Source of the DNA: Escherichia coli
GTDB taxonomy: Bacteria > Pseudomonadota > Gammaproteobacteria > Enterobacterales > Enterobacteriaceae
Assembly (NCBI RefSeq): GCF_003334315.1
Contig: NZ_QOWR01000012.1
Strand: one strand, 5' to 3'
DNA length: 64,000 nucleotides
This document shows, piece after piece, positions 9,923-30,681 of the stretch (position 1 is its first letter; every line of letters starts with the position of its first letter). A model generated the notes under the pieces. It did not search any database, was not told where the DNA came from, and worked only from the letters and a program-made list of their open reading frames with translations. A program made the position numbers and the translations under genes.

Positions 9923-11163
9923 CAGGGTTTTACCCCCGTGTTTTCAGTTTCTACCCGATCCTGCGTTTCCATTGTCGGTTGTGCGGGCGGATCAACCTGC
10001 GCCAGACGTGGCGTGTGTGCCGGAAGCCAGCCAACCAGCGCCGGGAAGTGGCGTAAAAAGTGGAACGCCAGCACGCTTTTGGTCAGGTTCCACCAGGTGC
10101 GTTTGGGCAGCATGGTTTCATCCACCTGCTGACAATCTGCGGCGATAATGCCGTTCAGATTATCGCGCAGCGTCTGGTTAAAATTACGATCGTGGATGAT
10201 GACATTTGCTTCGAGATTCAGTGACAAACTGAGCGGATCGAGATTACTGGACCCTACTGTCGCCCAGTGATCGTCCATCAATGCTACTTTGCCGTGGAGC
10301 GGGCGGCGGCGGTACTCAAACACCTGAACGCCGCCTTTAACCAGATAGTTATACAGCAAGCGCGCGCCGACTCTGACAATCGGCATATCCGGTTCGCCCT
10401 GAATGATCAGTTTGATCCGCACCCCGCGGCGTGCCGCTTTACGCAAGGCGTGTAAAAATCGATAGCCGGGGAAGAAGTAGGCGTTGGCGATAATGACTTC
10501 CCGCCGCGCCTGAGTGAGCATTTTCAGATAGTGGCGTTCTATATCATCGCGGTGTTCTTCGTTATCGCGCCAGACCAGCAATACCTGCGCTTCTCCCGGC
10601 TGGCGATTTTCTTCCGCTTTGTGATGACGTCGCCACCAGCGTCGTGCCGCGCTCTGTCCAGGCAGGTTTTCCAGCTCAAACTGGAGAATATCTTCGACAA
10701 TCGGCCCTTCAAGGCGTACCGCGTAATCCTGTTTAGCCTCTGGACCGTAGCTGGACATATGCTCGGCGGAGTAATTCAGCCCGCCAATAAAGGCGATACG
10801 CGCGTCGATCACCACAATTTTGCGATGCATCCGGCGAAACACATTGGTGCGCATACCAAAAAGGCGAGGGCGGGGATCGTAGTAGCGAAATACCACGCCA
10901 GCTGCCGTCAGTTCATTGACAAACTCATCGCTGAGATCCGGCGAACCGTAGCCATCCAGCAAGACTTCCGCTTTAACCCCGCGTTGCGCTGCTGCCAGTA
11001 GTGCCGCATGCAGCTGTTTGCCGACGTCATCCTCAAACCAGATAAACGTTTCAAGAATGATGCGTTCTTGTGCCTCGCCAATCGCCTTAAACACCGCGGG
11101 ATAATATTGCTCGCCGTTTTCCAGCAACTCGATCTTATTGCCTTCACGCCAGCTACATTTCAT
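9922..11163 (-). CDS. clsB: Cardiolipin synthase B (phospholipase D superfamily)
   Basis: 413 aa; two HxK(x)4D (HKD) motifs visible ([16 protein letters not shown]). Confidence 0.93.
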
Positions 11164-11921
11164 AAATGAATCTCCGCACTTAAAGGGGCATGATCAGAAA
11201 GGTGTCGCCATGTCTGCAGCGGCAACGCGGTTGGCGCGCTGGCGCTGGCATTTTTGACGTAGATCCTGTCCAGACGTAGTAGAGGAAATTGCACCGGAAA
11301 CGTGCGCGCCGGGCGTCCGTGGGCGCGGGTAAATATCTCATCCAGTCCGGCCTGCACTTTTAACGGATGATTAGCTTTTTGCCGCCAGTCATTGAAATCA
11401 CCCGCCACCAATACCGGTTCGCCGTCCGGTAGCTCATTCACCCATTCGGCGAGCATCGCAAGCTGCGCCTGACGGTGCGCCTCACGCAGGCCCAGATGTA
11501 CGCACATCACATGAATCGCTTTTCCGGTCATCGGCGGCACAATGCGGCAGTAGAGCACGCCGCGCTTTTCCGCACCATCGACCGAAACATCGCGATTCTC
11601 ATAATGTTCAATGGGATAACGCGACAGTACGGCGTTGCCGTGATGCCCTTCCGGGTATACGGCATTGCGACCGTAGGCAAAATCGCTCCACATGGTGTCG
11701 GCGAGAAACTCGTAGTGCGAGGTATCGGGCCAGTTTTCCACATGCAGCGGATGAACTTCGTGCGCGCCCATCACTTCCTGCAGGCAAACAATATCGGCGC
11801 TGACGGTACGCACGGCATCGCGAAGTTCCGGCAAAATGAAGCGTCGGTTAAACGCGGTAAAGCCTTTGTGAATGTTGATGGTGAGCACCTTGAACGAAAA
11901 TTGTTGTGTTTGATCGGGCAT
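11160..11921 (-). CDS. ybhP: Endonuclease/exonuclease/phosphatase family protein YbhP
   Basis: 253-aa ORF; 4-nt overlap with clsB. Confidence 0.88.
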
Positions 11922-12053
11922 AATTTTCCTGTCTTTGCCTCTTATCTCATTGAAATAGTGTAGTCGGCGTCACAAAAAGGTGCGGTCTTACGGAATTTTC
12001 CGTAAAGTTCGGTACTCTGAGTAAGTAGAGATAAATTCTTCAGGAGAGAAGCC

Positions 12054-12464
12054 ATGAAGTGGCAACAACGTGTTCGTGTCGCAACGGGTCTAAGTTGCTG
12101 GCAGATTATGTTGCATTTACTGGTAGTGGCGCTGCTGGTGGTGGGCTGGATGAGTAAGACTCTGGTTCACGTCGGCGTGGGATTATGCGCACTGTATTGT
12201 GTCACGGTAGTGATGATGCTGGTGTTTCAGCGCCACCCCGAGCAACGCTGGCGTGAGGTGGCAGACGTGCTGGAAGAGCTGACCACGACCTGGTATTTTG
12301 GCGCAGCGCTGATTGTGCTGTGGCTGTTGTCCCGCGTTCTGGAAAACAACTTTTTGCTGGCAATTGCAGGGCTGGCAATCCTTGCCGGCCCGGCGGTAGT
12401 GTCTTTGCTGGCGAAAGATAAGAAGTTACATCACCTTACGTCTAAACATCGCGTACGCCGCTGA
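12054..12464 (+). CDS. ybhQ: Inner-membrane protein YbhQ
   Basis: 136-aa hydrophobic ORF. Confidence 0.8.
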
Positions 12465-13532
12465 CCCTGTCGTGGCCGTTATCACCAGTAGCGGCCACAA
12501 ACTATTCCACACAATATCCAGACTCGCATCCTTCAAATAAATCTGCTTGGTAATGTCCGTAAAGTGGCGAATAGGGTTAATCCACGTCAGGTTTTGCAGC
12601 CAAACTGGCATGTTTTCCACCGGCGAAACGTAACCGGAAAGGAGAATGGCGGGCATCATAAAGACAAACACGCCGATAAACGCCTGCTGTTGTGTCGAGC
12701 AGAGTGATGAAATCAACAGACCGAATCCCACCAGCGATAAACCGTAAATCACCATCGTAAAGTAGAACAGCGCCAGCGATCCGGCGAAGGGGATTTGATA
12801 CGCCCAGATACCAATCGCCAGCACAATGGTGGCCTGGAAGGTGGCGACAATTAACGCCGGTACGGCTTTGCCGATGAAGATCTGCCAGGTGGTGAGCGGC
12901 GAAACCAGTAGCTGATCGAGCGTACCTTGTTCACGTTCGCGGGCGACGGAAAGTGAAGTGACGATCATTACGCCGATAGTGGTGATCATGGCGATCAGCG
13001 ACGGCACCACAAACCATTTGTAGTCGAGATTCGGGTTATACCAGTTGCGTACTACCAGCTCGCTGTTGTTAGGTTTCGGTTTTCCTTCCAGCAGCTCCTG
13101 CTGATAATTTTTGACGATCTGTTGCAGGTAGTTGGCGGCAATCTGCGCACTGTTGGAGTTACGCCCGTCGAGGATCAACTGCAAAGGCGCGGTCTGGAAG
13201 GTATCCAGTTTGCGCGAGAAGTCAGCCGGGAAACGCACCAGTAGTAACGCCTTTTGTGTGTCGATGGTTGGGCGGATCTCCTGTGGGCTTTTCAGCAGCA
13301 GCACATGAGTAAAGGCGCTGGCGCGGGCAAAACGTTGGGTCAGCTCCACCGAATGCTCGCCGTTATCTTCATCGTAGATGGCGATGGTGGCGTTAGTCAC
13401 TTCCAGCGTGGCGGCGAACGGGAACAGGATCACCTGAATTAGCACGGGTAAAATCAGAATCGCGCGGGTTTGTGGTTCGCGCAGCAACGACTGCAACTCT
13501 TTGCGGATTAACGTCCATAAGCGATGAAACAT
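12426..13532 (-). CDS. ybhR: ABC-2 family exporter permease YbhR
   Basis: 368-aa membrane ORF. Confidence 0.9.

Positions 13533-14668: not shown

Positions 14669-14676
<8 letters not shown>
13543..14676 (-). CDS. ybhS: ABC-2 family exporter permease YbhS
   Basis: 377-aa membrane ORF, paralogous to YbhR. Confidence 0.9.
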
Positions 14677-18067
<3,391 letters not shown>

Positions 18068-29751: not shown

Positions 29752-30681
29752 GCTATGTCCGCCCAGAAACCGGGGTTGCATCCGCGCAACCGTCATCACA
29801 GCCGCTACGATCTCGCCACGCTTTGTCAGGTCAATCCTGAACTCAGGCAATTCCTCACGCTTACACCCGCCGGGGAGCAAAGCGTAGACTTTGCCAATCC
29901 GCTGGCGGTGAAGGCGCTCAATAAGGCGTTGCTGGCCCATTTTTACGCCGTAGCGAACTGGGATATCCCCGACGGTTTTCTCTGCCCACCAGTACCGGGC
30001 CGGGCGGATTATATTCATCACCTTGCCGATTTACTGGCAGAAGCAAGCGGAACAATTCCAGCGAATGCCAGCATTCTGGATATCGGCGTTGGTGCGAACT
30101 GTATTTATCCGCTGATTGGCGTACATGAATATGGCTGGCGTTTTACCGGTAGTGAAACCAGCAGCCAGGCGTTAAGCAGTGCGCAGGCGATTATCAGTTC
30201 TAATCCGGGGCTTAACCGCGCCATTCGTCTGCGTCGGCAAAAAGAGAGTGGGGCGATTTTTAACGGCATCATCCATAAAAACGAGCAATACGACGCGACC
30301 TTGTGTAACCCGCCATTCCACGATTCCGCCGCTGCGGCACGGGCAGGTAGTGAGCGTAAACGCCGTAACCTGGGGCTGAACAAAGACGATGCACTGAACT
30401 TTGGCGGCCAGCAACAGGAGTTGTGGTGTGAAGGCGGTGAAGTCACCTTTATCAAAAAGATGATTGAAGAGAGCAAAGGCTTCGCGAAGCAGGTGATGTG
30501 GTTTACATCACTGGTATCTCGTGGTGAAAACTTACCGCCGTTGTATCGTGCCCTGACGGACGTGGGCGCGGTGAAGGTGGTTAAAAAAGAGATGGCCCAG
30601 GGGCAAAAGCAGAGTCGCTTTATTGCCTGGACCTTTATGAACGACGAGCAGCGCCGCCGTTTTGTCAATCGCCAGCGTTAA
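29752..30681 (+). CDS. rlmF: 23S rRNA m6A1618 methyltransferase RlmF (YbiN)
   Basis: Start [15 protein letters not shown] (308 aa); SAM-MTase motifs; NPPF motif (CNPPFH). Confidence 0.9.

Follow-up and report, generated by a model that had tools for sequence, protein, structure and literature searches.

Bidirectional intrinsic terminators between convergent genes were reportedly described by Ju et al. in 2019. Convergent genes may also share coding sequence: in a survey of 338 genomes, convergent pairs made up 7% of all overlaps, and in no other orientation did long overlaps look real (Palleja et al. 2008, PMC2478687). The excludon, a concept that comes from Listeria, covers opposite neighbours with overlapping transcripts, and the Escherichia coli genes ybhQ and ybhR are among 165 convergent excludons detected in at least 50% of 58 MG1655 transcriptomes (ExcludonFinder, PMC12288877). 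For Rho-dependent transcripts, 3′ ends trimmed to a stem-loop have been described (Dar and Sorek 2018, cited in PMC7815308).

The overlap of ybhQ and ybhR is already known from the RefSeq annotation and from the excludon listing (NAR 2025). Our analysis adds that its 39 bp are fixed family-wide, that YbhR dictates the sequence and YbhQ fixes its own stop and two basic residues, and that insertions in some genera, ERIC-derived where recognisable, uncouple the genes and relax these constraints. From these findings and the published transcript data, we consider it likely that the overlap is a genuine, ancient, tail-to-tail, dual-coding one and that Rho ends both transcripts inside the partner genes.

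Geometry and annotation of the overlap

The window that we analysed, that is, the whole stretch of 64,000 nucleotides, comes from a close relative of MG1655 with a few 1-bp indels; near ybhQ, the window coordinate is the MG1655 coordinate minus 812576. The 3′ ends of ybhQ (+) and ybhR (-) have 39 bp in common (Table 1). This sharing of 3′ nucleotides by two opposite-strand ORFs, which the sequence-only reading had reported, is found alike in the ORF list, the raw sequence and RefSeq, and the RefSeq ends are identical in strain CP53 and in K-12 MG1655 (b0791, 824630-825040; b0792, 825002-826108). The locus (1.8 kb) was found in 5424 of 5426 complete E. coli genomes. Each gene's share of the 39 bp is 12 sense codons and a stop codon, and the count of 13 codons each given earlier is right if the stop is included; the sense codons alone number 12. 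Codons of the two genes lie exactly opposite each other in antisense, position 1 facing position 3.

Table 1. Features at the convergent ends of ybhQ and ybhR, in window coordinates.
Feature	Position	Strand	Description	Source
Shine-Dalgarno sequence	12042-12046	+	AGGAG, before ybhQ	
ybhQ CDS	12054-12464	+	136 aa; YbhQ family inner-membrane protein (PF11076); stop TGA	ORF list, RefSeq
ybhR CDS	13532-12426	-	368 aa; ABC-2 type permease; stop TAA	ORF list, RefSeq
Dual-coding overlap	12426-12464	both	YbhQ L125-R136 (tail ..LTSKHRVRR) and stop (+); YbhR S357-M368 (tail ..AMFRRKVM) and stop (-)	Sequence
ybhR stop TAA	12426-12428 (TTA on +)	-	Antisense of ybhQ Leu125 TTA	Sequence
ybhQ stop TGA	12462-12464	+	Antisense of ybhR Ser357 TCA, a rare Ser codon	Sequence
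Hairpin	12472-12498	+	GTGGCCGTTA-TCACCAG-TAGCGGCCAC; within ybhR codons W345-T353	
C-rich, G-poor untranslated stretch past ybhQ stop	12499-12545	+	Candidate rut (putative)	
Dominant ybhQ mRNA 3′ end	12504 (MG1655 825080)	+	Term-seq "primary, antisense"	PMC7815308
Rho region peak, ybhQ read-through	~12606 (MG1655 825182)	+	Antisense to ybhR; score 3.95, p = 5e-7	PMC7815308
Rho region peak, ybhGFSR transcript	~12353 (MG1655 824929)	-	Antisense in ybhQ, 73 nt past ybhR stop; score 3.85, p = 2e-7	PMC7815308

Both ORFs are real, conserved genes: YbhQ belongs to the PF11076 family, and YbhR matches ABC-2 permease profiles. The reported start site (TSS) of ybhQ is ybhQ2. By annotation, ybhR is the final gene of cecR-ybhGFSR, which agrees with the CecR-controlled operon context named at the outset, and its product is 27% identical to the paralogue YbhS. 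Both stops are conserved in orthologues, neither end being a lineage-specific 3′ extension; a check for an earlier end of either gene found none, and the comparative evidence indicates reading to both annotated stops. Of the nine convergent pairs within the window's first 50 kb, two overlap: ybhQ/ybhR and, by 4 bp, rlmF/ybiO.

Conservation and ownership of the shared sequence

In this antisense register, only TTA, CTA and TCA in the partner make a stop, and these codons account for 14 of the 368 ybhR codons (3.8%), so that a run of 12 codons would stay open by chance with a probability of about 0.63. An open antisense frame is by itself unsurprising; its retention exceeds chance. We scanned one genome per species, which gave 80 Enterobacteriaceae loci, and ybhR was convergent to ybhQ in all 80. 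Two loci were left out as disrupted, those of E. albertii (early ybhQ stop) and Lelliottia (ybhR frameshift). Among the 78 with both genes intact, the overlap is exactly 39 bp in 64 and 48 bp in one, and 13 have gaps of 2-206 bp between the genes. The 48-bp case is Kosakonia cowanii, in which Ser357 of YbhR is replaced by Thr and ybhQ extends accordingly. At the other end, the ybhR stop is TAA, TAG or TGA across species, and position 125 of YbhQ is correspondingly Leu (TTA or CTA) or Ser (TCA).

Several ABC-2 permease profiles align to YbhR as far as residue 363-366 and come to 2-6 positions from their own ends. Among 1.84 billion representative proteins, there are 14,076 YbhR homologues; those of 33-59% identity align to residue 365-367, end 1-3 residues later and share the tail pattern ..F-R-[RK]-[RK]-x-x. 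A PDB search with YbhR gave distant ABCG permease domains only, over residues 110-325, and is uninformative on the tail. For YbhQ, we found 817 homologues with a precomputed PF11076 match, most of them 136 aa long, and no model match in a search of NCBIfam; all 80 genome loci and every named protein match belong to Enterobacteriaceae. The YbhR tail is the ancestral ABC-2 permease C-terminus, on which the YbhQ tail was probably overprinted.

The residues of the YbhQ tail follow ybhR. Variation at YbhQ 129-135 is confined to the antisense translations of synonymous ybhR codons: T/A/S/P at 129-130 (antisense of the six Arg codons), K/E at 131 (Phe TTT/TTC), H/Q at 132 (Met/Leu), V/I at 134 (Tyr TAC/TAT) and R/G at 135 (Ala GCG/GCC). 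In Phytobacter, a new upstream stop shortens ybhQ, and the old tail frame is still open because ybhR holds it.

At a few positions, YbhQ holds ybhR in turn. Codon 357 of ybhR, the antisense of the ybhQ stop, is TCA in 62 of the 64 overlap species and CTA, which gives the stop TAG, in the other 2. In a codon alignment of the 59 overlap species with full-length ybhR, all 57 species with Ser at 357 use TCA, and the remaining two have Leu CTA (ybhQ stop TAG). Ser357 is the sole column without synonymous diversity among the 21 Ser columns of ybhR in this alignment, and TCA is the commonest codon at just 1 of the 20 others. Mean synonymous diversity of ybhR is 0.305 in the overlap versus 0.413 over the whole gene (rank 14 of 357 windows of the gene), and codons 351-361 hold five of the six least diverse Ala columns.

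The 13 gap species allow the same sites to be compared with and without the overlap. An antisense stop at ybhR codon 357 is present in 64/64 overlap and 9/13 gap species (Fisher p = 5e-4), GCG at Ala359, opposite YbhQ Arg135, in 61/64 and 7/13 (p = 5e-4), and TTT at Phe363, opposite YbhQ Lys131, in 60/64 and 5/13 (p = 2e-5); these p values carry no correction for phylogeny, and a single-gene NJ tree places the 13 gap species in only about 5-6 groups. Consistent in direction, the comparisons indicate, at the level of sequence, that the 39 bp are read as YbhQ and that selection acts on its stop and on two basic residues.

In some of the gap-type relatives, the DNA between the genes can be recognised. 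In Raoultella, the spacer is a tandem pair of units, each about 125 nt long. The unit, an imperfect palindrome with a folding energy of -64.6 kcal/mol, can be aligned over its whole length (about 125 nt) with a repeat in the E. coli yjbE-yjbF intergenic region. The ERIC-PCR primer pair is matched at 34/42 positions by the core of the Raoultella unit and at 36/44 by the E. coli yjbE-yjbF copy. Across 4,496 E. coli genomes, the unit also has matches of about 75% identity at 13,364 unannotated places; the median is 3 places per genome with any match. The insert thus has the features of an ERIC (IRU) element, an imperfect palindrome of about 127 bp, with a conserved central core, that is dispersed, multi-copy and intergenic. 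Since it is placed exactly at the ybhR stop, YbhR is intact and the YbhQ tail is new and ERIC-encoded (..AFGLHQGGNAANPxKHR). Recognisable remnants of the ERIC left arm are present in Kosakonia and in two "Enterobacter sp." loci (L036 and L060); in the four loci with the shortest gaps (L030, L031, L072 and L080), ERIC similarity is too weak to assign the inserts. In about 10 species, the ERIC-encoded tail substitutes for the original one. Because the tail can be replaced wholesale in this way, the exact sequence of the YbhQ tail matters little.

This replaceability bears on the possibility that the overlap is a neutral leftover, in which an accident of stop-codon drift gave YbhQ a functionless tail that is conserved only via the YbhR tail. 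The tail swap itself would agree with such a history, as would the free variation of YbhQ 128-130 and 134 with the synonymous sites of ybhR and the former tail frame of Phytobacter, which is open purely through ybhR. However, TCA, GCG and TTT are near-fixed only under dual coding, the low Ala diversity is concentrated in codons 351-361, and the replacement YbhQ tails again end in basic residues (..KHR, ..DHR). We therefore regard a neutral origin without function as unlikely.

Based on these results, we propose how the dual-coding overlap may have arisen. YbhR ends at the ancestral C-terminus of its family, where a short basic tail in the cytoplasm comes after the last transmembrane helix. The younger, Enterobacteriaceae-restricted ybhQ reads 12 codons into the antisense of this tail, probably by overprinting: since the frame easily stays open in this register, ybhQ would have read on to the antisense of Ser357 (TCA to TGA). 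YbhR dominates the shared sequence, most YbhQ tail residues being the antisense of whichever synonymous codon ybhR has, and the species comparison shows that YbhQ adds constraint at three points, namely the position of its stop, Arg135 and Lys131. By the predicted topology, YbhQ thereby gains a basic tail that follows its last transmembrane helix and lies in the cytoplasm.

Transcript ends inside the partner genes

The sequence-only reading held that the overlap leaves no room for separate terminators. It was right that there is no intergenic DNA, and because of this each transcript ends within the partner CDS; the published 3′-end and Rho data place the ends there. The dominant 3′ end of ybhQ mRNA, which appears twice in the three-condition table of Adams et al. 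2021 (Supplementary file 1, PMC7815308) and which we mapped onto the window by an exact 61-nt match at 12454-12514, is inside ybhR at 40 nt from the ybhQ stop, and a hairpin ends 6 nt before it. No 3′ end on the - strand is listed there as assigned to ybhR. In the bicyclomycin data of the same study (DirectRNA-seq with and without the inhibitor, Supplementary file 2), read-through rises on Rho inhibition on both strands, as expected of Rho terminators, at peaks whose resolution is low owing to the 800-nt comparison windows. On the + strand, the C:G ratio is 13:2 at 12505-12544 and 17:7 at 12499-12560. On the - strand, the 40 nt that follow the ybhR stop have a modest ratio of 15:8, and the ratio over 12425-12353 is 25:16.

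The hairpin lies 8-34 nt beyond the ybhQ stop. Its MFE is -19.2 kcal/mol (z = -3.2 vs shuffles), and over 73 distinct sequences 89% of the stem cells are paired and 5 are compensatory. It has a GC-rich 10-bp stem and, in many species, is perfectly palindromic. Over the 59 species, it folds on both strands, and its mean MFE is -19.3 vs -13.8 kcal/mol for synonymous-codon shuffles, or about 5.5 kcal/mol more stable. The stem uses the rare codons CTA (37/59) and ATA (46/59), and GCC is fixed (55/55). The W-P and A-A-T codons in part determine the stem, and a fold of -13.8 kcal/mol is left after synonymous shuffling. Wobble asymmetry did not assign the hairpin to a strand, with 20 cells paired in the + RNA only and 14 in the - RNA only (p = 0.39). 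Neither strand has a U-tract, the flanks being CCCTGTC and AAACTATTCC, and our terminator and promoter scan of 11800-13000 did not call the hairpin. All that the scan gave were weak hairpins within ybhQ (for example, 12382-12396), which were rejected as conserved signals, the synonymous diversity of their codons being high (0.53-0.72). Downstream of the ybhR stop, structure on the - strand was no better than in shuffled sequence (z = -0.38), and an Rfam scan of 11800-12900 at E values up to 1 gave no match.

In the simplest reading of these data, the RNA past each stop is untranslated, and Rho, as the published bicyclomycin data show, acts on it inside the partner gene. The ybhQ mRNA would then be trimmed back to the hairpin or stop at it; the 3′ end is mapped, and the trimming step is our suggestion. 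The hairpin probably protects or defines the 3′ end of ybhQ mRNA. Since each mRNA ends inside the partner, those of ybhQ and ybhR have complementary 3′ ends.

Such complementarity raises the question of regulation. The published data show overlapping transcripts, the ybhQ end being inside ybhR and the Rho region of the ybhR transcript inside ybhQ. Transcriptional interference between ybhQ and ybhGFSR, which had been put forward from the sequence, is plausible, and a regulatory effect of it is hypothetical. A selected regulatory excludon, in which YbhQ and the YbhGFSR exporter are made mutually exclusive by RNA polymerase collision or by RNase III cleavage of the duplex, would be in line with the place of the pair in the core E. 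coli excludome, with the reach of the transcripts into the partner (at least 40 nt for ybhQ and about 70 nt for ybhR) and with convergent adjacency in all 80 species sampled. However, excludon listing is automatic when both genes are expressed because their coding regions overlap, and it adds little for a pair that is an excludon by definition. Moreover, we found no report of expression anticorrelation, RNase III dependence or a phenotype for ybhQ/ybhR, several lineages tolerate 2-206 bp inserted between the genes, and protein coding, rather than a need for RNA complementarity, accounts for the constrained sites. Selection for mutual exclusion is therefore doubtful. In a more specific version, the overlap and the hairpin within the ybhR codons would act as one conserved module, by which YbhQ production is inversely coupled to the CecR-controlled YbhGFSR exporter via transcript collision or pairing, with YbhQ as an accessory or antagonist of the pump; this is speculative and quite improbable. 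If it were true, the codons of a transmembrane helix would double as a terminator and RNA-stability element that is retained for regulation.

Another possibility is that the hairpin is a canonical bidirectional intrinsic terminator for both genes. Its palindromic, GC-rich stem that folds on both strands and the ybhQ 3′ end just beyond it would suit this role, but the U-tract is absent from both strands, the scan did not call it, and a 3′ end is listed for the + strand only (12504). On the - strand, the hairpin precedes the ybhR stop, so that termination there would truncate ybhR, and read-through is bicyclomycin-sensitive on both strands. We thus consider this role very unlikely.

Finally, an annotation artefact, with one gene stopping earlier or YbhQ not being a real protein and hence no dual reading, can practically be dismissed: YbhQ lacks an NCBIfam match and a known function, an open antisense frame is expected by chance, and long convergent overlaps are often misannotated 3′ extensions (PMC2478687), but YbhQ is a conserved 136-aa family with a ribosome-binding AGGAG site, a TSS and a mapped 3′ end, its stop is held by ybhR codon 357 in every overlap species and relaxed once the genes are uncoupled, and the YbhR end is the family-wide C-terminus.

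Comparison with known systems

The dual-coding reading that we prefer makes ybhQ/ybhR a clean textbook case of a mid-length convergent overlap in E. coli that is real and old. In its 39 shared bases, one protein dictates the amino acids and the other holds its own stop and a few synonymous sites in place. The locus also illustrates that genes without intergenic space can still be terminated, since Rho and a hairpin inside the partner gene suffice. The lineages separated by insertions, which are ERIC-derived where recognisable, provide a rare natural control for dual-coding constraint. Our picture of the exporter and of YbhQ is unchanged by these findings.

Compared with the conserved convergent overlapping pairs of Rogozin et al. 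2002 and Palleja et al. 2008 (PMC2478687), ybhQ/ybhR is alike in that real opposite-strand genes share 3′ ends across genera and in that one partner dominates the amino-acid constraint, consistent with 3′ extension into a neighbour. Unlike them, the overlap is mid-sized, under the 60-bp threshold for "long", its length is unusually stable family-wide, and the insertion-uncoupled lineages are at hand for comparison. As in the convergent excludons of ExcludonFinder (PMC12288877), opposite neighbours have overlapping transcripts, and the pair is listed as one; the transcript overlap is trivial given the CDS overlap, and mutually exclusive expression or RNase III processing, the functional outcome that defines excludons, is hypothetical for this pair.

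With ERIC/IRU elements, the likeness is in the gap-type spacer, a palindrome of about 125 nt that matches an E. coli intergenic ERIC copy and the primer core; the difference is that the E. coli window has no ERIC here and that part of the element in the relatives, its left arm, now codes for a new YbhQ C-terminus.

The hairpin recalls the bidirectional intrinsic terminators attributed to Ju et al. 2019 in being palindromic, GC-rich and placed where the ybhQ and ybhR transcripts meet, and it differs from them in having no A- or U-tracts, in having a 3′ end on the + strand only and in lying inside ybhR, upstream of its stop. In mechanism, the locus fits the Rho-dependent ends trimmed to a stem-loop of Dar and Sorek 2018 (cited in PMC7815308): the ybhQ transcript has bicyclomycin-sensitive read-through, a C-rich, G-poor stretch and a 3′ end just past a hairpin without a U-tract. 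The ybhQ terminator, including its hairpin, is distinct in being embedded in the convergent ybhR CDS, and for this reason its sequence must also encode the last transmembrane helix of YbhR.

Shifted ends of ybhQ in relatives

ybhQ and ybhR are convergent genes whose coding regions overlap. In Kosakonia cowanii (locus L052), Thr replaces Ser at position 357 of ybhR; the antisense TGA is thereby lost, so that ybhQ is longer by three codons and the overlap grows to 48 bp, the sole length variant among the overlapping species. In the Phytobacter loci L030 and L031, a new upstream stop terminates ybhQ 18 bp short of ybhR, and the former 12-codon tail frame (LHHLTPEHRIGR*) remains open downstream of it, evidently kept so only by the coding constraint on YbhR.

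An ERIC-family repeat (enterobacterial repetitive intergenic consensus) lies precisely at the ybhR stop in Raoultella (L064 and L066), and likewise at L060, L068, L025, L027, L029 and L036. Both Raoultella loci carry two tandem units, each of about 125 nt. At the repeat loci ybhQ and ybhR are 36-206 bp apart, and the new YbhQ C-terminus (..AFGLHQGGNAANPxKHR*) is now encoded by the left arm of the repeat.

Positions of the features discussed (L-numbers are ybhQ/ybhR loci in their own coordinates)
Feature	Position	Organism
ybhQ/ybhR overlap variant, 48 bp	L052:3373-3420	Kosakonia cowanii
ybhQ end and old tail frame	L030:3399-3456, L031:3402-3459	Phytobacter
ERIC-family repeat	L064:3380-3620	Raoultella
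ERIC-family repeat	L066:3380-3650	Raoultella
In-frame TAG, ybhQ codon 16	L005:574-576	Escherichia albertii NBRC 107761
Short same-strand overlaps	window 9922, 11160-11163, 14669-14676, 16398-16405, 17396	E. coli

Apparently interrupted reading frames

Trp16 of ybhQ is replaced by a stop in Escherichia albertii NBRC 107761. Apart from that codon the gene is undamaged, and the geometry of the 39-bp overlap is preserved; ybhQ may have become a pseudogene recently here, or the stop may stem from a sequencing error. The ybhR alignment is in several pieces or frame-shifted near its 3' end at L079 (Lelliottia nimipressuralis), L034 (Kluyvera genomosp. 3, in which a CCCCC run is short of one C), L020 and L045. 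Frameshifts, pseudogenes and errors in the assemblies are possible explanations.

Transcript end and neighboring overlaps in the window

Published Term-seq (LB, OD 0.4) placed a 3' end inside the ybhQ ORF, 60 nt from its start, at window 12114 (+) (MG1655 824690), with a Rho score of 0.6 and an intrinsic-terminator score of 4.9 (PMC7815308); it possibly reflects premature termination or attenuation of ybhQ. Window 1-50000 is not identical to MG1655 812577-862576: there are several 1-bp indels and some substitutions, and the offset changes near window 7250, 8050, 8150 and 24900.

Same-strand overlaps of 1-8 bp each link ybhN-clsB-ybhP and cecR-ybhG-ybhF-ybhS, which is typical operon coupling; unlike the latter genes, ybhS and ybhR are separated by 10 bp. 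A second convergent coding overlap, 4 bp common to rlmF (+) and ybiO (-) at about 30678-30681, is likewise on the published excludon list (PMC12288877).
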